Virus record (IMG/VR): IMGVR_UViG_2547132272_000014
DNA: 20,767 bases
Direction: 5' to 3' (one strand)
DNA from: a virus
Taxonomy: Duplodnaviria > Heunggongvirae > Uroviricota > Caudoviricetes
Position numbers and translations under genes: made by a program. Under the pieces are notes generated by a model that saw only the letters and a program-made list of their open reading frames with translations, was not told where the DNA came from and did no database searches. This document shows positions 355 to 15,111 of this stretch, piece by piece. Every line of letters begins with the position of its first letter. Position 1 is the first letter of the stretch.

Positions 355-630
355 ATGAAAACTGGAACTAAGCTCTTAGTTGGTGCGTTAGCTTTTGTTG
401 TCACAAACGTCTATGCCGCTGAATTGATGACTAAAGCGGAATTTGAAAAGGTTGAATCGCAATATGAAAAAATAGGTGATATTTCAACAAGTAATGAAAT
501 GTCGACTGCAGATGCAAAAGAAGATTTAATCAAAAAAGCGGATGAAAAAGGTGCTGATGTGTTGGTACTGACCTCCGGTCAGACTGACAATAAGATCCAC
601 GGCACGGCAAATATTTATAAGAAGAAGTAA
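355..630 (+). CDS. yahO: YahO-like small periplasmic protein (DUF1471 / BhsA-McbA family), 91 aa
   Basis: ORF track 301..630 trimmed to ATG 355, which has GGAG at 343-346; N-terminus [23 protein letters not shown] is a typical Sec signal peptide; sequence recognised from memory as E. coli YahO; position upstream of prpR fits the known gene order. Confidence 0.7.
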
Positions 631-702
631 TTCTGAAGCCATGTAAATATGCCCGATGTGCACGTCTATCGGTGAATGCAATATATTGAAATTCATGATT
701 TT

Positions 703-736
703 GTAGGCCGGATAGGGGGTCACACCGCATCCGGCA
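703..736. repeat. REP (repetitive extragenic palindromic) element between yahO and prpR
   Basis: gtaggccggatagggggtcacaccgcatccggca matches the enterobacterial REP consensus (GCCGGATA...GCATCCGGC) with internal dyad symmetry. Confidence 0.5.
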
Positions 737-738
737 AT

Positions 739-2325
739 TTAATTTTTCAGCCGCCGCCAGAACGTCGTTCGGCTGATGCCTAAATAATTCGCCGCTGCTG
801 TTTTATCACCATTAAATTTCTCCAGTGCCTGTTGGGGTGTCAGCAAGGGAGAGGCGGTAATTTTCGCCGACTCGTGGGCTAATTCCGGCAGTAGCCGTTG
901 CAAAAACTGCGGCGTTAAATCCGGCGTCGGTTCCACACTTAAAAATAGCGCCAGTCGCTCCATCATATTGCGGAGTTCACGAATATTTCCCGGCCACTCA
1001 TAGTGCAATAAAACCACCTGGCAGGTATTTAACCCCTCGCGTAACGCAGCAGAAAATGGGGCGGAGAGCGCCGCCAGAGACACTTTTAAAAAGCTTTCCG
1101 CCAACGGCAGAATATCCGCACCCCGCTCGCGCAGTGGCGGCAATTGCAGACGTAAAATACTCAGTCGATAAAACAGATCACGGCGAAAACGTCCTTGCTG
1201 CATATCCTCTTCCAGATTGCAGTGGGTGGCGCTGATGACCCGCACATTTACCGGAACAGGCTGATGTCCGCCGACGCGAGTGACCTCTTTTTCTTCCAGC
1301 ACCCGCAGCAGGCGAGTCTGCAAAGGCAGCGGCATTTCGCCAATTTCATCAAGAAACAGCGTGCCGCCGTGGGCAATTTCGAACAGCCCGGCGCGACCTC
1401 CGCGTCGCGAGCCGGTAAATGCCCCTTCCTCATAGCCAAATAGCTCCGCTTCCAGCAATGATTCGGCAATCGCTCCGCAGTTAACGGCAACAAACGGATG
1501 TGATTTTTTACCGTGGCGAGCGTCATGACAGGCAAAGTATTCCCGATGTATCGCCTGAGCCGCCAGCTCTTTACCGGTTCCCGTTTCTCCCTGAATCAGC
1601 ACCGCCGCACTGGATCGGGCATAGAGCAAAATGGTTTGCCGCACTTGTTCCATCTGTGGCGATTGACCAAGCATATCGCTCAAAACGTAACGAGTACGCA
1701 GGGCGTTGCGGGTAGTGTTCTGGGCGTTATGCCTTAGAGACATGCGTGTCATATCCAGCGCATCGCTGAACGCCTGGCGCACGGTGGCAGCGGAATAGAT
1801 AAAAATTCCGGTCATTCCGGCTTCTTCTGCCAGATCGGTAATCAGCCCGGCACCGACCACGGCTTCGGTGCCGCTAGCTTTTAGCTCGTTAATCTGCCCG
1901 CGTGCGTCTTCTTCGGTGATGTAACTACGTTGGTCGAGACGCAGATTAAAGGTTTTTTGAAACGCCACCAGTGCCGGAATGGTTTCCTGATAAGTAACGA
2001 CGCCAATCGATGAGGTAAGTTTTCCGGCTTTTGCCAGCGCCTGTAACACATCAAAGCCGCTCGGTTTAATCAAAATAACGGGCACTGACAGGCGGCTTTT
2101 CAGGTACGCGCCGTTAGAGCCAGCGGCGATGATAGCGTCGCAGCGTTCACTTGCCAGTTTTTTGCGGATGTAGGCCACCGCTTTTTCAAAGCCAAGCTGG
2201 ATAGGCGTTATGTTCGCCAGGTGATTAAACTCAAGGCTGATATCGCGAAACAGTTCGAACAAGCGCGTCACTGATACCGTCCAAAAAATGGGTTTATCGT
2301 CGTTCAGCCGTGGTGGATGTGCCAT
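739..2325 (-). CDS. prpR: Propionate catabolism operon regulator PrpR, sigma54-dependent enhancer-binding protein, 528 aa
   Basis: ORF track 739..2394 trimmed to ATG at 2325 (protein [12 protein letters not shown]...); AAA+ sigma54-interaction signatures GETGTGKE (Walker A) and GAFTG, C-terminal HTH; divergent from prpB. Confidence 0.85.
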
Positions 2326-2501
2326 AGCACCCCAAAGAATTAAGAAACCGAATATTGGGTTTAGTCTTGTTTCATAATTGTTGCAATGAAACACGGTGAA
2401 ACATTGCCTGAAACGTTAACTGAAACGCATATTTGCAGATTAAGTAAGAGTGTTTTTGTTAACAAATTGAAATGTATTGGTTATTTTGAGTTTATCAATT
2501 G

Positions 2502-2517
2502 TGGCATAGCCCTTGCT
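2502..2517 (+). promoter_or_regulatory. sigma54 (RpoN) -24/-12 promoter for prpB-prpC
   Basis: TGGCATAGCCCTTGCT fits TGGCAC-N5-TTGCW (GG at 2503-2504, GC at 2515-2516); lies about 50 bp upstream of the prpB start and next to the divergent sigma54 activator gene prpR. Confidence 0.7.
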
Positions 2518-2563
2518 TTGTGTTTATCAACGAAAATAACAAGTTGATAACAAAGGATGGGCT

Positions 2564-3454
2564 ATGTCTCTACACTCTCCAGGTAAAGCGTTTCGCGCCG
2601 CACTCTCCAAAGAAACTCCGTTGCAAATTGTTGGCACCATTAACGCCAACCATGCGTTGTTGGCGCAGCGTGCCGGATATCAGGCGATTTATCTCTCCGG
2701 TGGTGGCGTGGCGGCAGGTTCGCTGGGGCTACCCGATCTCGGTATTTCTACCCTTGATGATGTGCTGACCGATATTCGGCGTATCACCGACGTTTGCTCG
2801 CTGCCGCTGCTGGTTGATGCCGATATCGGCTTTGGCTCTTCGGCCTTTAACGTGGCGCGTACTGTGAAATCGATGATTAAAGCCGGTGCGGCAGGATTGC
2901 ATATTGAAGATCAGATCGGCGCGAAACGCTGCGGTCATCGTCCGAACAAAGCGATCGTCTCGAAAGAGGAGATGGTTGATCGGATCCGCGCGGCGGTGGA
3001 TGCGAAAACCGATCCTGATTTTGTGATCATGGCGCGCACCGATGCGCTGGCAGTGGAAGGTCTGGACGGCGCGATCGAACGCGCGCGAGCCTATGTTGAA
3101 GCCGGTGCCGAGATGCTGTTCCCGGAGGCGATTACTGAACTCGCCATGTACCGCCAGTTTGCCGATGCGGTGCAGGTGCCAATCCTCGCCAACATTACCG
3201 AATTTGGCGCCACGCCCCTGTTCACCACCGATGAATTACGCAGCGCCCATGTCGCAATGGCGCTGTACCCGCTTTCAGCATTCCGCGCCATGAACCGCGC
3301 CGCTGAACATGTCTACAACATCCTGCGCCAGGAAGGCACGCAGAAAAGCGTGATCGACACCATGCAGACCCGTAACGAGTTGTACGAAAGCATCAACTAC
3401 TACCAGTACGAAGAGAAGCTCGACGACCTGTTTGCCCGTAGCCAGGCGAAATAA
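2564..3454 (+). CDS. prpB: 2-methylisocitrate lyase, 296 aa
   Basis: ORF 2564..3454 with AAGGATGG upstream; isocitrate lyase/PEP mutase family signatures (KRCGH catalytic loop, EDQ motif); recognised as E. coli PrpB. Confidence 0.9.
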
Positions 3455-3487
3455 ACAAACGTCTGGTGGTTGTATTCGACAACCGAT

Positions 3488-3574
3488 GCCTGATGCGCCG
3501 CTGACGCGACTTATCAGGCCTACGAGGTGTACTGAACTGTAGGTCGGATAAGACGCATGGCGTCGCATCCGACA
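3488..3574. repeat. Pair of inverted REP elements (BIME-like) in the prpB-prpC spacer
   Basis: gcctgatgcgccgctgacgcgacttatcaggcctac (3488-3523) and gtaggtcggataagacgcatggcgtcgcatccgaca (3538-3574) are REP-consensus sequences in opposite orientation. Confidence 0.5.
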
Positions 3575-3615
3575 ACAATCTCGACCCTACAAATGATAAC
3601 AATGACGAGGACAAC

Positions 3616-4650
3616 ATGAGCGACACAACGATCCTGCAAAACAGTACCCATGTCATTAAACCAAAAAAATCTGTGGCACTTTCTGGCGTTCCGGCGGGTA
3701 ACACCGCGCTTTGTACCGTAGGCAAAAGCGGCAACGACCTGCACTATCGCGGCTACGATATTCTCGATCTCGCAGAACATTGCGAATTTGAAGAAGTGGC
3801 GCATCTGCTGATCCACGGCAAACTGCCGACCCGTGACGAACTCGCCGCTTACAAAACGAAACTGAAAGCCCTGCGCGGTTTACCGGCTAACGTGCGTACC
3901 GTGCTGGAGGCTTTACCTGCGGCGTCGCACCCGATGGATGTTATGCGCACCGGCGTTTCCGCGCTCGGCTGCACGCTGCCGGAAAAAGAGGGGCACACCG
4001 TCTCCGGCGCGCGGGATATTGCCGACAAACTGTTGGCGTCGCTGAGTTCGATTCTTCTCTACTGGTATCACTACAGCCACAACGGCGAACGCATCCAGCC
4101 GGAAACCGATGACGACTCTATCGGCGGTCACTTCCTGCATCTGCTGCATGGTGAAAAGCCGTCGCAAAGTTGGGAAAAGGCGATGCAAATTTCGCTGGTG
4201 CTGTACGCCGAGCATGAGTTTAACGCCTCCACCTTTACCAGCCGGGTGATTGCGGGCACCGGCTCTGATATGTATTCAGCCATTATCGGCGCGATTGGTG
4301 CACTGCGCGGGCCGAAGCACGGCGGGGCGAATGAAGTGTCACTGGAGATCCAGCAACGCTACGAAACGCCGGACGAAGCCGAAGCGGATATCCGCAAGCG
4401 CGTGGAAAACAAAGAAGTGGTGATTGGTTTTGGCCATCCGGTTTATACCATCGCCGACCCGCGCCATCAGGTGATCAAGCGTGTGGCGAAGCAGCTCTCG
4501 CAGGAAGGCGGCTCGCTGAAGATGTACAACATTGCCGATCGCCTGGAAACGGTGATGTGGGAGAGCAAAAAGATGTTCCCCAATCTCGACTGGTTCTCCG
4601 CTGTTTCCTACAACATGATGGGCGTTCCCACCGAGATTGTGGGGTGGTGA
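3616..4650 (+). pseudogene. prpC: 2-methylcitrate synthase prpC, 3'-truncated by prophage insertion
   Basis: Translation matches PrpC (citrate synthase family) through ...[13 protein letters not shown]. As I recall it, intact PrpC continues MFTPLFVIARVTGW... for about 45 more residues; here the frame reads IVGW-stop, encoded by the first bases of the prophage end. Chromosome/prophage junction is at 4637/4638. Confidence 0.75.
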
Positions 4651-4949: not shown

Positions 4950-5600
4950 TTATGCTGATTTCTTGTTTACAGGCTTCGTTTCTTGCTCCGGCGTGGCAAC
5001 GGTCTGACCACCTGGCGACCTAGCTCGTATATGAGATTCGATGCGGCGCAAAATCTCTTTGTCAATTTCTTCGTTACCATCTAATGCCATACATATGGCG
5101 TCTTTTAGCGATTCCCTGATGTTCAGGCTTCTGATGGCATTCTCCTGTTCGTCTAGGTCGTTGTAGGCCTGTTTCGCTTGCCTGGTGGGTTGTTGTAGGC
5201 GTTCCAGGACTCCTTTGATACCAATACAACAAAGCATATCAATAAGACGCTCTCTATCTTCTGGAGCGGCTCGTCTTAGTATTTCGTCAACAATACTTGT
5301 ATCGGGGCGGTTAACGTCTTCTGTAGTCACCCTTGATTTTTCTACCATTGGAACACTTCTGTTCTCACCGTAGACCAGCCATTCCAGTGATACATTCTCT
5401 AATTTTGCTATTGTAGCGACCACATTTAGGCCAGGTGTCGTGCCTTTTTCAAAGTAGTTATTTATGGTCGAGTACGGTAATCCCCAGTCTGAGGTGGCTT
5501 TACGCAGGCTCCTGGTGCCAATCAGTTGTTTGATTCTGTCTTGAATGCTTTCTTTTCTATCCTGAGAAAAGGAAAAATCATCAGCGATTTGTTTACTCAT
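4950..5600 (-). CDS. Prophage repressor candidate, N-terminal HTH (XRE/CI-like), 216 aa
   Basis: Minus-strand ORF divergent from ner; AGGA upstream of ATG 5600 on the minus strand; N-terminal segment LRKATSDWGLPYSTINNYFEKGTTPGLNVVATIAKLENVSLEWLVYGE looks like a CI/C2-type helix-turn-helix; no obvious S24 peptidase motif in the C-terminal half. Confidence 0.6.
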   Translation of the reverse strand: MSKQIADDFSFSQDRKESIQDRIKQLIGTRSLRKATSDWGLPYSTINNYFEKGTTPGLNVVATIAKLENVSLEWLVYGENRSVPMVEKSRVTTEDVNRPDTSIVDEILRRAAPEDRERLIDMLCCIGIKGVLERLQQPTRQAKQAYNDLDEQENAIRSLNIRESLKDAICMALDGNEEIDKEILRRIESHIRARSPGGQTVATPEQETKPVNKKSA

Positions 5601-5648
5601 TTTCTTTCCTTCTAACGTGTTGATTTACATGTGCTTTCTTCAAAAAGA

Positions 5649-5752
5649 CTTTCTTTTCACCAAAGAAAGAAAAGAAAGCTTGTAATTTTCTATTTGTGGA
5701 TCAATACTTATATCCGAAGGGATAACACGGCGGTGTTATCCGCACGGATAAC
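5649..5752. promoter_or_regulatory. Divergent repressor/ner control region with candidate operators
   Basis: Inverted repeat CTTTCTTTTC (5649-5658) / GAAAAGAAAG (5669-5678); palindrome GATAACAC-GGCG-GTGTTATC (5721-5740) plus a third GGATAAC half-site at 5746-5752; located between divergent regulatory genes. Confidence 0.4.
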
Positions 5753-5768
5753 TTTTAAGGGTAACCTA

Positions 5769-6005
5769 ATGATGGTTAGAAATGAAGTAATGAACAAAGA
5801 CTGGCACCGCGAGTACATCGTTGCCGCTGTGCACACCAAAGGTTTTACATTGCGTGAACTTTCTGAACGCGCTGGTCTAAAAAAAGACTCTTTAAAAAAT
5901 GCACTGTATCGCTCATGCCCTAAATATGAACGCATCATAGCCGATGCTATTGGTGTGGAACCTGCGGAGATCTGGCCAAGCCGGTATGCCAGTAAGGCGG
6001 CGTAA
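5769..6005 (+). CDS. ner: Ner-like DNA-binding protein (Mu Ner / Nlp family), 78 aa
   Basis: ORF track 5631..6005 trimmed to ATG 5769 (AAGGG at 5757-5761); sequence KDWHREYIVAAVHTKGFTLRELSERAGL...IIADAIGVEPAEIWPSRY resembles Mu Ner (…DWHRADVIAGLKKRKLSLSALSRQFG…IWPSRY, from memory). Confidence 0.75.
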   Translation: MMVRNEVMNKDWHREYIVAAVHTKGFTLRELSERAGLKKDSLKNALYRSCPKYERIIADAIGVEPAEIWPSRYASKAA

Positions 6006-8047
6006 TGTTTTATTCAGCCAATGAGCTGGCCGGTCTTCCTGGTTTGCCCGGTACAGTTCAGGGGGTGCGCTGGACGCTCAATCGGATCACAGAGACGCAC
6101 CCAGAATGGAAGCGCAAGCGCGAAGGCACCAAAGCATTCGAGTATCACATCGACTGCCTGCCCGCTGAAGCGCAGAAAGTTTTACGTAAGCGCCTGACTC
6201 ATCAGGTCCTGGAAGATGCACAACTGCCCGCCGTAGTTGAGCAGAAAGCAGTTAAAAACGTCGCCGTTCGCGATGAACTGGAGGTGATGGTCAAATGCCC
6301 GGAGCTGGCATTACGCGAAGTCCAGTCACTGACCGACAAGCAAAAGGCCATCGCTGATGCGCGGATATTGCTGGCTACTGAAGTGCATAAGCTGCGCGAG
6401 TATGCCGGAATGACCAGGAAGGCCGCTTTAAAGCACATCGTTGATGGTGTGCGCATGGGGGCGTTACCTGACCGCATTATCGAAGCAGCGAATACTGCAA
6501 ATGCACGTCAGGGAAAGCGAACCGGTGTCAGCACCGGCAGCCTGGATAGCTGGTACTCCAGCTGGGTGATGGCGCGCGGTGATGCCAATCAGTTACTGGC
6601 GTTACTGGCTCCCGGTCATCATAAGGGAACACCGTGGGAGCAGGTCTGGTGGTTGAGCGATTTCTTTATGTTCTATCGCTCATGGAAGCGCCCGACTGTT
6701 GAATATGCGTATCGTGAGTTTTCAGCCTGGTGGCATGAAAAACACGCGAATGATGCGGGAATGCTGGCGGCACTGCCTTCAGTTCACGCAGTAAGACGGG
6801 TGTTAAGCAGCGTCCCGGTGATTGTTAAAGAGCGTTTCCGCTCCACCGGTTCAGCCTGGCGTTCGCTCAATCCCTTTGTGCGGCGCGACTGGACATCATT
6901 ACCGGTTAATGCGGTATGGGTCGGGGATGGTCACTGTATGAAAATGACCGCGTTTAACCCCCTGACCGGCAATATTTTCCGGCCAGAAGTGACGCTGGTT
7001 ATGGATGCGGGGCAACGCTTTGTTGTGGGCTGGTCACTGTCCCTGTCGGAGAACGTGATAGCTGTTGCTGATGCGTTGCGTTACGGCATGGCACAGCACG
7101 GGATACCGCTGATTTATTACTCCGATAACGGGGGCGGCGAAAAAAACCGGGTGCTTGATGCCGATATTACCGGGATTCTGCCCCGTCTGGGTGTGGAACA
7201 TCACACGGGGATACCAGGTAACCCGCAGGGGCGCGGGGTGATTGAACGGGCAAACAAAGGAATACCCAAAGACGTGGCTCTGAGTTTCCAGACGTACTGC
7301 GCAAGGGATGCAGACAAGGAAACCGTAATGATGCAGCAACGGATTATGCAGTCAGCCATTAAGGCCACCCACAAAGGGAAAGAGCTGACAAAACGGCAGG
7401 TTAAGGCGAGGGATGAAATCCCTACCTTTGAGCAACTGATGGCAGCCATAGAGCTGGAGGTCAGACGCTATAACAACCGGCCACACAGCAGCCTTCCTCG
7501 CAAAGAGGATGGCGAATATTACAGCCCGGCAGCGTATCGCCGGAAACTGATAAAAGAGCAAAAGGCTGAAATCGACATGCTGTCGCCGGAAGAACTGCAT
7601 GAAATGTTCAGACCGGAAGTGACGCGCAAAACATTTCGCGGGGAAATTCAGTTATTCAACAATATTTATTACTCATATGAGCTGGCCGCAGAGCACGGGA
7701 ATGAAGTCAGGGTCAGTTACGATATTCATGATGCAAACAGCGTCATTGTCCGGCGGGCTGATGGCTCTTATATCTGCGATGCCATCTGGAACGGTAACAA
7801 GGTTGATGCCTTCGCTAAACCAGTTATCGAGCAAAAACTGGAGAAACGCGTCAGGGGCCGCATTGCACGGGCCACGCAGAAAATCGAAGAAGCTAAACGC
7901 GAGCTTACCCCGGCCATTACGCAGAAGCCTGACTTTAATCTGGGATATGGACTGGAGCGCCCGGAGAAAAAGGAAAAAGAAGAACTTTATTTATTCGCAT
8001 CTGAACGCGAACGCAATTTAAAGAAAAACGGCACAAACAACCGTTAA
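6005..8047 (+). CDS. MuA-like DDE transposase, 680 aa
   Basis: Start overlaps the ner stop (TAATG); N-terminus ANELAGLPGLP resembles the MuA N-terminus (ANLPGLPKT); candidate DDE residues in WVGDGH, YYSDNGG and GRGVIER; size and position match Mu A. Confidence 0.85.
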   Translation: MFYSANELAGLPGLPGTVQGVRWTLNRITETHPEWKRKREGTKAFEYHIDCLPAEAQKVLRKRLTHQVLEDAQLPAVVEQKAVKNVAVRDELEVMVKCPELALREVQSLTDKQKAIADARILLATEVHKLREYAGMTRKAALKHIVDGVRMGALPDRIIEAANTANARQGKRTGVSTGSLDSWYSSWVMARGDANQLLALLAPGHHKGTPWEQVWWLSDFFMFYRSWKRPTVEYAYREFSAWWHEKHANDAGMLAALPSVHAVRRVLSSVPVIVKERFRSTGSAWRSLNPFVRRDWTSLPVNAVWVGDGHCMKMTAFNPLTGNIFRPEVTLVMDAGQRFVVGWSLSLSENVIAVADALRYGMAQHGIPLIYYSDNGGGEKNRVLDADITGILPRLGVEHHTGIPGNPQGRGVIERANKGIPKDVALSFQTYCARDADKETVMMQQRIMQSAIKATHKGKELTKRQVKARDEIPTFEQLMAAIELEVRRYNNRPHSSLPRKEDGEYYSPAAYRRKLIKEQKAEIDMLSPEELHEMFRPEVTRKTFRGEIQLFNNIYYSYELAAEHGNEVRVSYDIHDANSVIVRRADGSYICDAIWNGNKVDAFAKPVIEQKLEKRVRGRIARATQKIEEAKRELTPAITQKPDFNLGYGLERPEKKEKEELYLFASERERNLKKNGTNNR

Positions 8048-8065: not shown

Positions 8066-8959
8066 ATGAGTTTAATTACGCAATTAAATGACGTAATGGC
8101 CCGTCGCGGCTATACGCAAACCCACGTCGCCCGTGCTATTGGTCGTAGCAGCGCCGTTATCAACCAGTATTTACAGGGTAAATATCAGGGCGATATGGCT
8201 GATATTGAAGAACGCATTTTCGCCTTTGTGACCCGTGAGCGGGAAAAGGAAAACAGCCGCCGTATTAAAGCGAAATTTGTTGCCACCGGTATGGCTGCCA
8301 AAGGACTGGAGGTGTTGGCCTATGCTCACCTGGAATGTGAAATCTGCGTACTGTATGGCGCGGCAGGTCTTGGCAAAACAATGATTCTGCGTGAATACGC
8401 CGCCAGAAACCGGGATGCGGTCCTGATTGAAGCCGACCCGGGCTATACAGCCAGAACACTGCTTGAGGAGCTGTGCCGCCAGCTGGGGGTAAAAGTTCGC
8501 GGCAATATCCACGAACTGATTGATGCATGTGTGCGAGAACTGCGTGATTCCGGTCGCCTGCTGATGGTGGACGAGGCTGAACTGCTCCCCTATCGCGCAC
8601 TGGAGGTTCTGCGCCGTCTGCATGACAAAGCGGGTATCGGGATTGTCCTGGCGGGTATGCCACGCCTTCTGATTAACCTCAAGGGACGTCGCGGTGAGTT
8701 CGCCCAGTTATACAGCCGTGTGGCGCTGGCGCTTAACCTGGGCGATACGCTGGCGCAGGAAGATTTTAACCAGATAGCCACCGGGCTGATGCCGGAAGCA
8801 GCAGAACCGGAAATCAGCGAGGCGCTTTACGTACGCTCGCTGGGTAATGCCCGCCGCCTCTTCAAACTGGCGCGCGGTGTGTACCGGATTTGTGATATCA
8901 GCGATGCACCGGTCAGTGTGCAGGCCATTGATAAATTCGCAGAAATGTTAATTCACTGA
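8066..8959 (+). CDS. MuB-like AAA+ ATPase (transposition target DNA activator), 297 aa
   Basis: N-terminal HTH-like segment, Walker A GAAGLGKT, Walker B-like LLMVDEAE; immediately downstream of the transposase as in Mu. Confidence 0.75.
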   Translation: MSLITQLNDVMARRGYTQTHVARAIGRSSAVINQYLQGKYQGDMADIEERIFAFVTREREKENSRRIKAKFVATGMAAKGLEVLAYAHLECEICVLYGAAGLGKTMILREYAARNRDAVLIEADPGYTARTLLEELCRQLGVKVRGNIHELIDACVRELRDSGRLLMVDEAELLPYRALEVLRRLHDKAGIGIVLAGMPRLLINLKGRRGEFAQLYSRVALALNLGDTLAQEDFNQIATGLMPEAAEPEISEALYVRSLGNARRLFKLARGVYRICDISDAPVSVQAIDKFAEMLIH

Positions 8960-10771: not shown

Positions 10772-11488
10772 ATGGAAAATAAAAGCAAATACATTGCCAA
10801 AATCAAAAAACTGTTACGCCTTGCCAGAGGAACATCAAGCCCGGAAGAAGCCGCTAACGCTATTGCAAAAGCCCAGGCTTATATGCGCCAGCATGGTATC
10901 AGCGAAAACGACGCGGAATTGTTCGACATTCAGGAAGCTGCCAGCGCGGGTGCGCCGAGTGATGCCAGTACGCCGCCGCGTTATATGCACATCCTGTGTG
11001 ACCTGGTATGTAAAGCCTTCGGTGTCGAGTGTTACATCTCAGGTGAATACCGGGCTTCTGGTTCACTCAAACGTTACGTTCGTTTTTATGGTCCTGACAG
11101 CCGCCCGGAAATTGCGGCATACGCGTTTGATGTGCTTTCCCGTCAGATGATGGCTGAACGTAAAAAATATCAGGATAAACACTGCAAACGTTGCGGCCCG
11201 TCCACGCGGGTAGCCCGTGGCGACCAGTTCTGCGAAGGCTGGGTCTTTGGTGTCCGTGATGTCATTGCGGTGTATGACGTCTCCCCGGAAGAAAAAAGTC
11301 GCCTTGAGCTTTACAGAAAGAACCTGCACAGCACGAAAGGGCTGCGCGACGGGGATATGCGCACAGCTAAAGCGTGCCGGGGTGCAGAGTTTGCCGCTAC
11401 TGCCGGTTTTATCGCCGGGAAAAACGCCAGGCTGCATCAGGGGGTTAATGGTCAGAGCAACAGACCACTGGCATTGGGGAGGGTGTAA
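10772..11488 (+). CDS. DUF2786-like protein with C-terminal Cys cluster, 238 aa
   Basis: ATG 10772 with GAGGGA at 10760-10765; N-terminus KIKKLLRLARGTSSPEEAANAIAKAQAYMRQHG matches the remembered DUF2786 N-terminal signature; HCKRCGPSTRVARGDQFCEGW suggests a metal-binding ribbon. Confidence 0.5.
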   Translation: MENKSKYIAKIKKLLRLARGTSSPEEAANAIAKAQAYMRQHGISENDAELFDIQEAASAGAPSDASTPPRYMHILCDLVCKAFGVECYISGEYRASGSLKRYVRFYGPDSRPEIAAYAFDVLSRQMMAERKKYQDKHCKRCGPSTRVARGDQFCEGWVFGVRDVIAVYDVSPEEKSRLELYRKNLHSTKGLRDGDMRTAKACRGAEFAATAGFIAGKNARLHQGVNGQSNRPLALGRV

Positions 11489-11490
11489 CG

Positions 11491-11718
11491 ATGGCTTTTA
11501 AACTTCTCAGTGTTACCGAAGCAATATACCAGCCGCCCGGAGAACGCCACGAATACAGGATGAATGACGGTAGCGCGGCGGTTGAGTTCCTTAAATATCC
11601 GGGGGATTCCCGGTGGCGGTTCTATGACAGTGTGGGACGCCGGATTATTAAAAGAACCGTGCACAACGCCATGAAAGCCGCCGTAGAACGTCACAAAAGA
11701 AGGTTTAACTGCAAATGA
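11491..11718 (+). CDS. Hypothetical early protein, 75 aa
   Basis: ATG 3 nt after the upstream stop, GGGGAGGG upstream; no family recognised. Confidence 0.4.
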   Translation: MAFKLLSVTEAIYQPPGERHEYRMNDGSAAVEFLKYPGDSRWRFYDSVGRRIIKRTVHNAMKAAVERHKRRFNCK

Positions 11719-11939
11719 ATATTGAATTTTATGACTATGGGGTTACCGCAAAAATCATTGTCACCTGCTGGTTCTGGGAGTTCCGTCGCTATTGCCGGGT
11801 TGTAGATGCGGCGCTGTTTGTAGCCCCTGAAGTGCACCATGAGAGCGGTGGCGGTCTTTTAATGAGAACTGTTATCACCGGCAAGACTGTCCCGATGTTA
11901 CGGGCGTTTAAAGTGGCAAAACAGGAGGCGGCGCAGTGA
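11715..11939 (+). CDS. Hypothetical early protein, 74 aa
   Basis: Start overlaps the upstream stop (ATGA), suggesting translational coupling; no family recognised. Confidence 0.4.
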   Translation: MNIEFYDYGVTAKIIVTCWFWEFRRYCRVVDAALFVAPEVHHESGGGLLMRTVITGKTVPMLRAFKVAKQEAAQ

Positions 11940-12100
11940 ACCAGCAAACCAGAATAAGCGATAAGAGCCTGACCAGACTGATTGCCGATGCGGACAAGGT
12001 GCTGGAGCGGAACACTCCCGTTGCCGATGAGGAATGGTGGCAGGATTTCCGGGCCGCAATGCTGGAACTTCAGGTACGTCGTCGGGAGGAATTGAAGTGA
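11936..12100 (+). CDS. Possible small ORF, 54 aa, GTG start
   Basis: GTG overlapping the upstream stop (GTGA); fills a 250-bp gap in an otherwise tightly packed operon; not in the ORF track. Confidence 0.2.
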   Translation: MNQQTRISDKSLTRLIADADKVLERNTPVADEEWWQDFRAAMLELQVRRREELK

Positions 12101-12189
12101 GTGAATTAAAGTGTCGAATTAATGGCAATCAGATAGAACCGTGTGCGGTACTGGCAAAAGCACCCGAATATGGAAAAAGGAGGCAACCA

Positions 12190-12687
12190 GTGAGTGAGAT
12201 TAACTATCAGGCACTGCGTGAGGTGGCAGTGGCCGCGAAGGGGGATACGACGTGGCAGAACCTACAGGCTTTTCATGCTGCTGCTACGCCGGAGGTTGTG
12301 CAGGCGTTGCTGGATGAAAACGAAAGACTGTGTCGCGATCTGATAGCTCGTAATGGTGAGATTGAAGGGCTTCGGGAGTGGGCAGAAGAACTGGAGGCAC
12401 GGGAGGTAGCTTTGCCAGTAGCGTCATTCATTGTTGAAGATGGATACATGCGTGTTGATGGGTTCAGTGAGTATGTAGGTCACTCGCTACCTGATGGAAT
12501 GCATGAGCTTTATGCTGCCCCGCCAGCATCGGTAGTACCGGAAGGACTAGTTAAAGCAGTGCGTTTCTATGAACAGGTAAAGTGTGAGAATCCGCTAGTC
12601 GAAACCGGAGCATGGAAAGACGCGGTTGACTGGGTGCTCAACGAGGCTTGCCAGGCTGTAAATATTGACGCCAAAGGAGGTGCGTAA
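12190..12687 (+). CDS. Hypothetical early protein, 165 aa
   Basis: ORF track 12034..12687 trimmed to GTG 12190, which has a strong AAGGAGG at 12177-12183; predicted helical/coiled-coil segment (ENERLCRDLIARNGEIEGLREWAEELEARE). Confidence 0.45.
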   Translation: MSEINYQALREVAVAAKGDTTWQNLQAFHAAATPEVVQALLDENERLCRDLIARNGEIEGLREWAEELEAREVALPVASFIVEDGYMRVDGFSEYVGHSLPDGMHELYAAPPASVVPEGLVKAVRFYEQVKCENPLVETGAWKDAVDWVLNEACQAVNIDAKGGA

Positions 12688-12857
12688 TGCGTGCCGCGTT
12701 TATCGGTTTATTACCGTACCCGACTCGTTTTTGGGCTTCTGCGCTAATTGCAAAGCCGCATACCCTTATGGCTGACAGCATCATCCCGGCACCAAAGCGC
12801 CATACCGGTATTGCAGCTGCACGACGCGAAGCAAAGAAACGCAGGAGAGCAAAATGA
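12687..12857 (+). CDS. Possible small basic protein, 56 aa
   Basis: ATG overlapping the upstream stop (TAATG); C-terminus RREAKKRRRAK; below the ORF-track size cutoff. Confidence 0.2.
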   Translation: MRAAFIGLLPYPTRFWASALIAKPHTLMADSIIPAPKRHTGIAAARREAKKRRRAK

Positions 12858-13045
12858 TGAAAAACCGTAAGGCAAGACTGCTGATAGCAAAAACCGGGCA
12901 GCTTATCCGTATCTCAAATCGGCTTGTTGTTCGCTATAGATATCTTGGTTTTAGGGAGTGGTCATCTATTCGTTTTTACGGTGTCTGGCGAAACAGAAGC
13001 GCAGCCCAAAACCGCTGGAAAAATCACAGAGGGACAACACGATGA
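12854..13045 (+). CDS. Small basic Arg/Trp-rich protein, 63 aa
   Basis: ATG 12854 with GGAG at 12844-12847; highly basic composition. Confidence 0.3.
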   Translation: MMKNRKARLLIAKTGQLIRISNRLVVRYRYLGFREWSSIRFYGVWRNRSAAQNRWKNHRGTTR

Positions 13046-13227
13046 AAACTATCACTGTAACGGTTGAAATCGACGTTCCTGATAACGCAACGGACAATGA
13101 TATTGCTGATTTTGTCGATGTCGAGTATGGAGAGTGCGGAAAAATGGCACTTGATAACCCATGCCGGACAGATGGAACGGAAATACTCGATGCCAGATGG
13201 GAACACGGACCTGATTACGCGGGGTGA
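13042..13227 (+). CDS. Small strongly acidic protein, 61 aa
   Basis: ORF track 12958..13227 trimmed to ATG 13042 (GAGGG upstream; ATGA overlap with the upstream stop); 10 Asp + 5 Glu against 4 Lys/Arg by my count. Confidence 0.4.
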   Translation: MKTITVTVEIDVPDNATDNDIADFVDVEYGECGKMALDNPCRTDGTEILDARWEHGPDYAG

Positions 13228-13231
13228 AAAG

Positions 13232-13483
13232 ATGAGATGGGTTGACATTTTTATTATCGCTCTGATTGTTACGGGTATTGCGCTTTGTGTAACAACTAAC
13301 AAGGCTTCTGATGATGCGGAAAGTGGGCATTGCGTGGTAAGGAGAAATTTCATCAAAACCATTACGCATTGTGATGATGGAAGCGCCACCGTGACCAGCG
13401 GGGATAAGTTTATTTATTGCTCTGCGGGGAAAAATGGCACGCCATCCTGTCATGAAGTGACGCTCGGTGATGGTGATAAATAA
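13232..13483 (+). CDS. Small membrane-anchored Cys-containing protein, 83 aa
   Basis: ORF track 13064..13483 trimmed to ATG 13232; hydrophobic segment WVDIFIIALIVTGIALCV followed by a soluble domain with four more Cys. Confidence 0.45.
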   Translation: MRWVDIFIIALIVTGIALCVTTNKASDDAESGHCVVRRNFIKTITHCDDGSATVTSGDKFIYCSAGKNGTPSCHEVTLGDGDK

Positions 13484-13563
13484 TTCACCACATTGAGCAA
13501 ATAACAATCAAGCGCAGACCAAAACATATGTTTTGGTCTGCCAAAAGTAGTGTTTTGGTCATT

Positions 13564-13842
13564 ATGAAGATTGAACAAGTCGGAATGGCAGCTTTCAGGC
13601 AACAGGCTGAAAGCGGTGGCGTGGATGAGTTCGTCGTGCAGCGGTTCGGTGGTGTGTATCACCTCTTCGCTGTGAATCGCCGCGCCGGGGTGTCCTATTT
13701 TCTACAGGAACGCCGTGGCGATTACAAGACGTGGCTGTCTCTTGACCGTGCCGCCGCGTTCCTGTCGGGGATTGGCGTTTCACGTTTTACCGTGCGTTTT
13801 GAGGATAACAAACATGCTGAAAAAGATGATCGGAGCCATTAA
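13564..13842 (+). CDS. Hypothetical protein, about 92 aa, start uncertain
   Basis: Codon-like ORF 13528..13842 but no convincing RBS at any in-frame start (13528, 13564, 13587); overlaps the GemA-like start by 29 nt. Confidence 0.3.
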   Translation: MKIEQVGMAAFRQQAESGGVDEFVVQRFGGVYHLFAVNRRAGVSYFLQERRGDYKTWLSLDRAAAFLSGIGVSRFTVRFEDNKHAEKDDRSH

Positions 13843-14209
13843 AGCCGGTCAGGCGTATCTGGGGTGGGATGATGCCCTTTATCGCCAGACGCTGGCCCGT
13901 CTGACCGGTAAAACCAGCACCACACGCTGCAATCTCGATGAACTGCGCATCATCCGGGAATACATGCACGAACAGGGATTTCCGCGCAAAGCGCCCGCCG
14001 GTAAAGGTCGCCGCCCCCGTGTTGCAATGAGCAGAAAATCGGTATTATCCAAAATTGAGGCGTTGCTGGCTGATGCCGGTCGTTCCTGGGCGTATGCGGA
14101 AGGACTGGCATCTCACATGTATAAGCAACATGTGATCGAATGGCTGACGGATGAACAGCTTTTTGGGGTGATGGTGGCGCTGGTTAAAGATTCAAGGAGA
14201 CGTAAATGA
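13814..14209 (+). CDS. GemA-like protein (Mu gp16 / DUF1018-like), 131 aa
   Basis: ORF track 13715..14209 trimmed to ATG 13814 with GAGGA at 13801-13805; N-terminus KKMIGAIKAGQAYLGWDDALYRQTLARLTGKTSTTRCNLDELRIIREYMHEQGF matches the remembered GemA-family pattern; lies just upstream of the Mor-family gene as gemA does in Mu. Confidence 0.55.
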   Translation: MLKKMIGAIKAGQAYLGWDDALYRQTLARLTGKTSTTRCNLDELRIIREYMHEQGFPRKAPAGKGRRPRVAMSRKSVLSKIEALLADAGRSWAYAEGLASHMYKQHVIEWLTDEQLFGVMVALVKDSRRRK

Positions 14210-14544
14210 AAAAACTGTTATTACTTATTCTGGCTTTATGTTTTACAGGGATATCCCATGCTTCTGATTCAGAGGAAGATTTGATCAAAAAAACATTACA
14301 GGGCGATTATCAGGCACAACGTAATCTGGCTTATTCATACATGAATGGCTGGGATGATATTTCAAAGGATATCATCAGAGGATGCGCTCTCAGGAAGGTT
14401 ATTCTCTTGACACAAGCCAAAGCTGACATTGGCGATTATGGAAATGAAGCCATAGATTGCCGAAAAGTGCATCCAACAGATAACCAGAAAGTATGGGAAT
14501 ATGTCAGAGGATACCTGGTGTTGATAAACGAGAATAAAAAATAA
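14206..14544 (+). CDS. AT-rich cargo gene encoding a secreted/periplasmic protein, 112 aa
   Basis: ATG overlapping the GemA-like stop (ATGA), AAGGAG at 14194-14199; signal peptide MKKLLLLILALCFTGISHA/SD; about 32-37% GC in the two 60-nt stretches I counted, versus about 55% in neighbours. Confidence 0.5.
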   Translation: MKKLLLLILALCFTGISHASDSEEDLIKKTLQGDYQAQRNLAYSYMNGWDDISKDIIRGCALRKVILLTQAKADIGDYGNEAIDCRKVHPTDNQKVWEYVRGYLVLINENKK

Positions 14545-14551
14545 TATGAAC

Positions 14552-14581
14552 AAAAACCTTCGCAGGCGCGGAGGTTTTTTA
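14552..14581 (+). terminator. Rho-independent terminator at the end of the early operon
   Basis: AAAAACCT ... AGGTTTTT inverted repeat around a GC-rich loop (tcgcaggcgcgg), followed by a T-run; directly after the stop at 14544. Confidence 0.55.
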
Positions 14582-14585
14582 TGGT

Positions 14586-14614
14586 CTGTACAGGCGATCA
14601 TGTATGGCTATAAT
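14586..14614 (+). promoter_or_regulatory. Candidate middle promoter (Pm-like) for the Mor-family gene
   Basis: Perfect -10 hexamer TATAAT at 14609-14614 with a poor -35 (TGTACA at 14587-14592), as expected for an activator-dependent promoter; 30 bp upstream of the mor-like start. Confidence 0.35.
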
Positions 14615-14643
14615 AACAGTAAGTTACTACCGGAGACGCCATC

Positions 14644-15111
14644 ATGCAGACCTTCAGTGAAACAGATCTTCGCGATGCGCAGGCACTGCTGCCCGACTCC
14701 GTGCAGCAACTGATTAGCGTGATTGGCTTCCCCGCCCTGACCCGGTTGATTCGTTCTTTTGGTGGCGTGACGTTAAGCGGTAAAACCGGCGCACACGCTG
14801 AACGCACCGGCGGCGTCCATGCCCTGTTACATGATGTGCTGACCGAAGACGAAATCAACAAACTGATCCGCTTTCTTGGCGGTGCTCCGTTTTACATTCC
14901 CCGTTGCGATCATGCGTTACGTGCCCTGCGTAACACCCGTTTTATGGCTGATTTACAGCGGCATATCAGGGACGGATTCTCACACCGGCAGGCGCTGGCA
15001 CTGCTCTGTCCCCGCTACGGGATTTCAGATCGGTACGCATGGCAGCTGATACACCGACGACAAAAACAGACTTCGCTGAAAAGCCCCACCCAGGTGGGGC
15101 TTTTTGATTAA
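14644..15111 (+). CDS. mor: Mor/C-family transcriptional activator, 155 aa
   Basis: GGAG at 14631-14634; C-terminal region LGGAPFYIPRCDHALRALRNTRF...LALLCPRYGISDRYAWQLIHRRQ matches the Mor/C pattern (GG.VYIP ... YG.S...VY.I..R); positioned after the early terminator as mor is in Mu. Confidence 0.65.
   Translation: MQTFSETDLRDAQALLPDSVQQLISVIGFPALTRLIRSFGGVTLSGKTGAHAERTGGVHALLHDVLTEDEINKLIRFLGGAPFYIPRCDHALRALRNTRFMADLQRHIRDGFSHRQALALLCPRYGISDRYAWQLIHRRQKQTSLKSPTQVGLFD

Follow-up and report, generated by a model that had tools for sequence, protein, structure and literature searches.

A mosaic block of four small early-region genes in a Mu-like prophage

The IMG/VR record IMGVR_UViG_2547132272_000014, a stretch of 20,767 nucleotides (nt) referred to here as the window, contains a transposable, Mu-like prophage of the type found in Escherichia coli E2348/69. 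Positions 12687-13483 hold a block of four small genes that an earlier note on this DNA had singled out as plausible anti-defence or exclusion cargo. Judged from comparison with related prophages, the block is an accessory slot that recombination has shuffled, with an Ea22-like gene on its left and the GemA and Mor genes on its right; an anti-defence or exclusion function of its products is a plausible guess suggested by their sequences.

Block anatomy and coding status

The tightly packed open reading frames (ORFs) were found on the + strand where the earlier note had placed them. Their products, with lengths in amino acids (aa) and isoelectric points (pI), are as follows:

12687-12857, + strand: orf56, a basic protein of 56 aa, pI 12
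12854-13045, + strand: orf63, a very basic protein of 63 aa with 13 Arg, pI 12
13042-13227, + strand: orf61, an acidic protein of 61 aa with 10 Asp and 5 Glu, pI 4.05, net charge -11
13232-13483, + strand: orf83, a protein of 83 aa with 5 Cys, predicted to be exported

Where a single basic protein had been announced for this interval, there are two, orf56 and orf63. The composition given for the acidic product was exact. The 83-aa product does have a single hydrophobic N-terminal segment and a Cys-containing exposed domain (four of its five Cys), but what had been described as a membrane anchor is possibly a signal peptide that is cleaved off, as discussed below.

Each ORF is preceded, at 6-10 nt, by a purine-rich Shine-Dalgarno-like stretch, which for orf56 is AGGAGG. 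The stop codon of the Ea22-like gene overlaps the orf56 start (TAATG), the orf56 stop overlaps the orf63 start (ATGATG), and the orf63 stop overlaps the orf61 start (ATGA). These start/stop overlaps at three junctions point to translational coupling of the block genes within one transcript. A consensus scan of positions 11400-14800 found no promoter-like or terminator-like sites above shuffled expectation, and a self-contained moron was rejected because internal promoters and terminators did not exceed chance. An explanation by non-coding RNA was also discarded, Rfam giving no match in 12687-13483.

The statement that these products lack family matches holds for Pfam, NCBIfam, PADLOC and the PDB, but not for PHROG, where all four match families of unknown function over nearly the whole profile: orf56 with phrog_13831 (E=7e-35), orf63 with phrog_1380 (E=4.9e-10), orf61 with phrog_8773 (E=4.5e-47) and orf83 with phrog_8391 (E=1.2e-44). 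Ratios of nonsynonymous to synonymous substitution rates (dN/dS), calculated between the window copy and homologous copies from IMG/VR and E. coli genomes, were 0.17-0.18 for orf56, 0.24-0.28 for orf63 and 0.13 for orf61. For orf83 the ratio was about 0.6-0.7 among the closest relatives, where very few substitutions leave the test little power; purifying selection on this gene is read instead from its exposed domain, which is 86% conserved among close relatives as against 61% for the N-terminal 32 residues. On this comparative evidence, all four ORFs are genuine genes under purifying selection. Missing conservation, which the earlier note had named as a ground for abandoning its proposal, is thus the opposite of what is seen, given the low ratios of three genes, the PHROG matches and the conserved orf83 domain. 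Two antisense ORFs on the - strand, 13024-13389 and 13052-13507, are broken in several distant homologues and were not retained.

A mosaic slot in the early region

The real departure of the block from the prophage core is its mosaicism. None of the complete E. coli genomes reached 80% coverage of the block. Its left part, 12600-13028, comprising the C-terminus of the Ea22-like gene with orf56 and orf63, is 95% identical to E2348/69, and its right part, 13022-13560, which covers orf61 and orf83 with the spacer downstream of them, matches prophages of the STEC313 type at 95% identity. The two matches (query ranges 1-429 and 423-961 of the interval 12600-13560) meet at one point:

13022-13028: mosaic junction, immediately past the codons for the conserved WKNH in orf63

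The position of this joint implies that it created the ATGA overlap between orf63 and orf61.

Among related Mu-like prophages, whose flanking proteins are typically 93-100% identical, the comparison proposed in the earlier note revealed 14 different slot contents, with each of the four genes present or absent independently of the others. All four occur together, among the related Mu-like prophages found, only in the window and in an IMG/VR twin, IMGVR_UViG_3300026224_000011, the proteins of which are 98-100% identical to those of the window across the block region. The slot is thus re-assorted gene by gene between prophages that are otherwise about 95% identical, and the description of the block as accessory cargo is borne out in the form of independently assorting modules in a variable early-operon slot.

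Of 5426 complete E. coli genomes, 9 contain DNA of the orf61-orf83 segment; four of these carry both genes, three carry an internally deleted orf61 together with orf83, and two carry orf61 only. The deleted variant, which keeps the first 16 orf61 codons and an intact orf83, was seen in IMGVR_UViG_2713896896_000010 and in E. coli 20KM0223N, MEI148-20EC and AH19B041. The recurrence of this deletion beside an intact orf83 indicates that orf83 does not need orf61. A further member of the gene pool of the slot is a 136-aa hypothetical gene (WP_053896997 / WP_029392800), missing from the window, that lies between orf63 and either orf61 or the downstream gene in prophages of the STEC313 and GF75 types (5569-5979 in locus L001, 5381-5791 in locus L003).

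This gene pool is common to enterobacterial Mu-like, lambdoid and P1-like phages and to some virulent phages. The lambdoid homologues of the block genes have an Ea22-like gene on one side and xis/int on the other, or else occupy the nin region. The basic pair is found mostly in non-Mu contexts, with 163 IMG/VR loci for orf56, mostly lambdoid, and 210 for orf63; an orf63-like gene follows orf56 within 450 nt in 116 of 125 loci. The DNA of the orf56 module (12672-12888) is 80-90% identical in Stx-converting lambdoid phages, phiV10, the TL-2011 phages and the P1-like RCS47, where it again stands beside Ea22-like genes. Its homologue in phage 933W lies right after L0069 in the exo-xis region and is unannotated (AF125520, about 3933-4118). 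These placements identify orf56 and orf63 as drawn from the lambdoid exo-xis gene pool.

The orf56 protein ends in an Arg/Lys-rich tail and was rejected as a membrane protein, its maximum Kyte-Doolittle value being only 0.98. In alignment, orf63 shows conserved basic termini, marked by the motifs MKNRKAK and SAAQNRWKNH, around a variable middle. Neither protein has a Pfam or PDB relative; specifically, no match at E<=1 was obtained to the Pfam families of lambda Orf63 (DUF1382), Orf60a (DUF1317) or Orf61. This conserved two-gene Arg-rich module appears never to have been studied.

The gene order of the prophage is repressor, A, B, DUF3164, DUF2786, small ORFs, Ead/Ea22-like gene, block, small gene, gp16/GemA, small exported protein and Mor, with holins, an endolysin and terminase annotated downstream of Mor in relatives. 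By this order, the block would be part of the early operon, with the transposition genes ahead of it and GemA and Mor behind. The landmarks around it are:

6005-8047: transposase A
8066-8959: B
12034-12687, + strand: Ead/Ea22-like gene, left neighbour of the block (Pfam Ead_Ea22, E=9e-13)
13513-13560: conserved repeat element with three TGTTTTGGTC copies, one of them inverted; right border of the variable slot
13715-14209: gp16/GemA
14644-15111: Mor

The E2348/69 homologue of the left neighbour is labelled in RefSeq as an ead/Ea22-like family protein. At the right border, the inverted TGTTTTGGTC copy forms a hairpin of 12-13 bp (GCAGACCAAAACA/TGTTTTGGTCTGC), and the spacer from 13513 onward is invariant in six related prophages regardless of the gene upstream of it. 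The repeat element might bind a protein, act as a hairpin in the processing or attenuation of RNA, or serve to anchor recombination. It lies directly 5' of an ATG at 13564, and the RefSeq length of the gene downstream of it is 279 nt; from the position of the element, the next gene likely starts at 13564 (92 aa) and not at 13528.

The earlier note had also set the block apart by its base composition. The 60 nt at 13042-13101 do contain 40.0% guanine plus cytosine (GC), as it had counted, and the block as a whole is lower than the prophage part, at 47.1% against 52.1%. The departure is weak, with 12% of same-size windows (797 nt; standard deviation 3.8%) lower still, so that low GC is a weak signal for the block. 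Within it, orf56 has 52.6% GC and orf63 to orf83 together have 45.4%. Far below the block lies 14206-14544, at 37.8%, a gene of 112 aa between GemA and Mor whose GC content deviates more than that of any other early-region gene. Its product has an N-terminal signal peptide, MKKLLLLILALCFTGISHA/S (the slash marks the cleavage site), a weak Sel1-repeat match and a match to phrog_5882. A different gene occupies its position in E2348/69, which indicates a second variable slot, and it is a stronger candidate for foreign cargo than the block that had been flagged.

As for the host, the flank at 376-4637 (yahO-prpR-prpB-prpC) is only 91.5% identical to E. coli genomes, which suggests that the host is probably a non-coli Escherichia. 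The prpC ORF (3616-4650, 344 aa) is truncated at the prophage end, and the Mu-like prophage therefore appears to have transposed into prpC.

The acidic and the exported protein families

A word-indexed search with orf61 gave 13 clusters at 90% identity. An exhaustive profile search of 1.84 billion representatives (E<=0.001, clustering at 50% identity) extended the family to 35 representatives, nearly all of 55-70 aa. The net charge of the family has a median of -8 and a range of -13 to 0 (n=32), and acidic residues are conserved at columns 11, 14, 18, 20, 23, 26, 28, 38, 44 and 47. These conserved columns suggest that charge is a selected feature; in the alignment, acidity is conserved family-wide and is not a peculiarity of the window copy. 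The orf61 cysteines are not conserved in the family.

The N-terminus of orf61 has alternating hydrophobic residues (I4, V6, V8, I10, V12) followed by P13, which suggests that residues 2-12 form a beta-strand. An amphipathic acidic helix at about 16-29 (A16, I21, F24, V25, Y29) follows as a conserved pattern, together with a DNP(C/L) motif, DNPC in the window copy, and a C-terminal E47-x-x-x-x-x-W53 segment. The AlphaFold2 monomer model, built from an alignment of 8 sequences, has a predicted local distance difference test score (pLDDT) of 65 and only helix 18-29 defined. A Foldseek search of BFVD with this low-confidence model gave no meaningful match (E>1 at best). With the single protein there was no Pfam match at E<=1 and none in NCBIfam, PADLOC or the PDB, and 29 family members searched against Pfam gave only Ral, for one member, at a non-significant E=0.043. 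The best result of the Pfam, NCBIfam, PADLOC and PDB searches, the PB1 domain of NBR1 at E=0.4, was taken as chance.

Carriers of orf61 include Mu-like early regions of E. coli and Klebsiella, where the gene lies between DUF2786 and GemA and near Gam. In the early-left regions of lambdoid prophages the order is Ea22-like gene, HNH, genes of unknown function, orf61 homologue, Rv2179c-like exonuclease and integrase. Homologues also occur in an Stx1c phage and in E. coli phages of 111-116 kb, and the virulent N4-like Pantoea phage G19 has an unannotated one some 2.9 kb into its record. The genome scan with the family alignment added four species representatives, from Pantoea, Pseudocitrobacter, Izhakiella and Alteromonas. 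The occurrence of the family in lambdoid, Klebsiella Mu-like and virulent N4-like contexts suggests a role in lytic development rather than in the lysogeny circuit of one phage.

The Klebsiella Mu-like block reads repressor, 594-aa transposase-like protein, AAA B-like protein, Gam, DUF2786, orf61 homologue, dATP/dGTP pyrophosphohydrolase, GemA and Mor. It is 100% identical across several samples to about 150 nt past the Mor stop (...CACTTCTAATCA; about position 6784 in loci L206-L208), beyond which it runs into wholly different genes in at least four contexts. This divergence suggests that the element ends there and, unlike Mu, has no late genes to its right. It may be an unusual genome layout or a repeatedly transposed mini-Mu-like element; its left end was not reached.

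The family of orf83 comprises 5 clusters when searched with the single sequence and 34 when searched with a profile that includes distant members. All members come from Enterobacteriaceae or their phages and are annotated as hypothetical. A hydrophobic segment at residues 6-20 (Kyte-Doolittle 3.09) is followed by a variable linker of 12 residues and by a conserved domain of some 50 aa for which a beta-rich fold is predicted and which contains four invariant cysteines (C34, C47, C63 and C73). The core pattern is H-C-x(11-12)-C-D-D-G-[ST]-x-T-x-T-x(3)-K-x-I-x-C-x(9-13)-C-x-E-x-x-L, and the four cysteines are kept down to 30% identity, which would fit periplasmic disulfides.

In the members from Klebsiella and in that of the jumbo phage YC1, the N-terminus is a textbook cleavable signal peptide, such as ...IPAAMA/ADNPHC; the Klebsiella homologues have an A-M-A/A site for signal peptidase I. 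The presumed membrane anchor of orf83 could likewise be a cleaved signal peptide, and the sequence features support the reading of orf83 as an exported Cys-rich protein. A lipoprotein was considered and rejected: the sequence I-A-L-C19, with Leu at -1, does not form a lipobox ([LVI][ASTVI][GAS]C), and the Klebsiella homologues have no Cys at this position.

The carriers of orf83 are Mu-like slots and lambdoid nin regions, where the gene has the replication genes on one side and NinB/Q on the other, and also virulent T1-like Klebsiella phages (Webervirus) and a jumbo phage. AlphaFold2, with an alignment of 6 sequences, modelled a helix followed by five strands at a pLDDT of 58, and a Foldseek search of the PDB with this low-confidence model gave a best E of 1.4 and a template modelling (TM) score of 0.3. 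Searches with the single protein and with the family profile found no Pfam, NCBIfam, PADLOC or PDB relative.

Possible roles of the block

The position of the block corresponds in Mu to what is known as the semi-essential early region, the stretch with kil, gam, sot, arm, cim and lig that leads to gemA and mor. A second counterpart is the lambdoid exo-xis region (orf60a, orf63, orf61, orf73 and ea22, with a variable set downstream), since genes like orf56 and orf63 sit after ea22 in Stx phages. As in both regions, the genes of the block are small, look dispensable and differ from relative to relative; none of the four products, however, has a homologue among the named early proteins of Mu and lambda, no Pfam or NCBIfam match having been obtained. 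The block is an instance of a well-known kind, the variable early accessory cassettes of temperate phages, and a specialist would find none of this surprising.

The reading preferred here, with slightly better than even confidence, is that the block is a recombination-shuffled accessory cassette of the early operon, a counterpart of these two regions, with putative host-directed roles. The four genes would be expressed along with those for transposition and replication as soon as the prophage is induced or a cell is infected, and would act on the host and not in phage assembly. Fast-evolving accessory genes of phages are often aimed at host defences (bioRxiv 10.1101/2023.04.06.535777). The linked Arg-rich pair orf56-orf63 would probably bind nucleic acid or an acidic partner. 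The orf61 product would be a small cytoplasmic alpha/beta protein that uses the conserved carboxylates along its strand and helix face to bind and block a basic surface, probably one that contacts nucleic acid, on a protein of the host or of a rival phage. Such an electrostatic decoy, of which a DNA-mimic anti-restriction protein would be one special case, is the best guess for orf61 because of the carboxylate pattern, the presence of carriers among both virulent and temperate phages, and the neighbourhood of nuclease, recombination and Gam genes.

The orf83 product would be exported by Sec, fold in the periplasm around two disulfides and act at the envelope; its export signal and four invariant cysteines suggest a periplasmic disulfide-bonded effector. 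Most likely it would shield the infected cell from further phage entry or mask a receptor or another envelope component, the leading guess by analogy with T5 Llp and T4 Sp/Imm. The acidity of orf61 and the four-Cys export of orf83 make both reasonable candidates for a counter-defence or exclusion screen, and no more.

Several points weigh against assigning host-directed roles. None of the four families has a member of demonstrated function, the annotations found all read hypothetical, and a literature search by RefSeq accession, PHROG identifier and peptide string returned no papers on them, so that they are undescribed beyond PHROG clustering and these labels. In Pfam, NCBIfam, PADLOC and the PDB, and with Foldseek on the low-confidence models, no DNA mimic and no protein of anti-restriction, defence or exclusion was found to be similar in profile or fold. 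Many phage proteins are small and acidic without being decoys, and the acidic surface of orf61 is read from a sequence pattern, the AlphaFold models being of low confidence. Expression from the early operon is likewise judged from gene position. The deletion of orf61 in some relatives that keep orf83, and the lack of block genes in close relatives, indicate that any role would be conditional.

A different role, possible but unlikely, is that the genes tune lysis-lysogeny or the timing of induction through host transcription or physiology and have nothing to do with counter-defence. Genes of the lambda and Stx exo-xis region influence lysogenisation and induction (PMC8614690, PMC3824215), and orf61 homologues do stand between Ea22-like genes and xis/int in lambdoid phages. 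This proposal is weakened by the virulent carriers, namely the N4-like Pantoea phage G19 for orf61 and the T1-like Webervirus for orf83, which have no lysogeny decision to make. The block proteins are also unrelated to lambda Orf60a, Orf61, Orf63 and Orf73, none of the Pfam families of these being matched, and an exported periplasmic protein would be odd as a modulator of transcription.

Less probable still is the function suggested by the earlier note in its full form, in which orf61 would be a DNA mimic like Ocr and ArdA, giving relief from type I or other restriction, and orf83 a membrane-anchored protein of superinfection exclusion or lysis control. Like T7 Ocr, ArdA, T7 gp5.9, phi29 p56, UGI and several Acr proteins, orf61 is small, early-operon encoded and of pI about 4, a value shared by Ocr and ArdA (bioRxiv 10.1101/2023.04.06.535777). 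Its family keeps negative charge at set positions, and both genes lie in early operons of temperate and virulent phages. DNA mimics display an array of carboxylates, usually on a dimer, with which the conserved acidic strand and helix columns of orf61 are compatible without being diagnostic, the monomer model reaching a pLDDT of only 65. No sequence-profile similarity to these mimics was found, no anti-restriction family was matched (the Ral score being not significant), PADLOC and the PDB hold no relatives, and the structure model is unusable for this purpose. Anti-restriction DNA mimicry of the classic type would be improbable for orf61 taken by itself.

For the exclusion part of the same proposal, the exported, Cys-rich character predicted for orf83 is in favour. 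It recalls T5 Llp, Cor of phi80 and N15, and T4 Sp and Imm in being small (about 50-80 aa), early-operon encoded and equipped with an export signal and probable periplasmic disulfides. Llp and Cor are lipoproteins, whereas orf83 has no lipobox and its Klebsiella homologues have signal peptidase I sites. Nor was any significant Pfam or PDB match found to Llp, Cor, Sp or Imm, the Foldseek result on the low-confidence model being no better than E=1.4. Control of lysis is further disfavoured by the location of the lysis genes elsewhere, as the holins and endolysin of relatives are annotated downstream of Mor.

A bolder form of the preferred early-cassette reading would make orf61 an undescribed family of acidic decoys of 55-70 aa, spread over Mu-like, lambdoid and virulent N4-like phages of Enterobacterales and reaching Alteromonas, that inhibits a nucleic-acid-binding immunity or repair factor of the host by way of its conserved carboxylate-lined surface, and orf83 a new family of periplasmic, disulfide-bonded proteins that block entry. 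This would be a long shot.

The opposite charges of orf63 (+15.6) and orf61 (-11.4) and the ATGA overlap of their genes might indicate an obligate pair, either a toxin-antitoxin system or an inhibitor-chaperone complex. Such a pair is very improbable and was rejected on co-occurrence data: E2348/69 and GF75 carry orf63 without orf61, STEC313 combines its orf61 with nothing closer than an orf63-like gene of 41% identity, and orf63 is missing from the lambdoid and N4-like phages that have orf61. The overlap is a product of the mosaic junction, and the constant partner of orf63 is orf56.

That the ORFs are non-functional remnants or chance frames of a decaying region is scarcely credible and largely refuted: they are very short, without curated families and missing from close relatives, with orf61 internally deleted in some of these and few substitutions behind the high dN/dS of orf83, but three genes have low ratios, Shine-Dalgarno sites are present, the Cys columns of orf83 and the acidic columns of orf61 are maintained, and conservation of the proteins extends to copies of 30-45% identity in different types of phage and genera of bacteria.

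At present, the outcome is that the four ORFs are real and that the block is mosaic cargo in common with lambdoid exo-xis regions, while the DNA-mimic label and the compositional argument are not yet backed by data. If a counter-defence or exclusion function were true, two compact families, one of about 60 aa and one of about 50 aa in its mature form, would be added to the anti-immunity toolbox of phages. The slot between DUF2786 or the Ea22-like gene and GemA in the Mu-like prophages of E. coli would then stand out as a hotspot of anti-defence genes that would repay mining, given the 14 different gene sets seen there.

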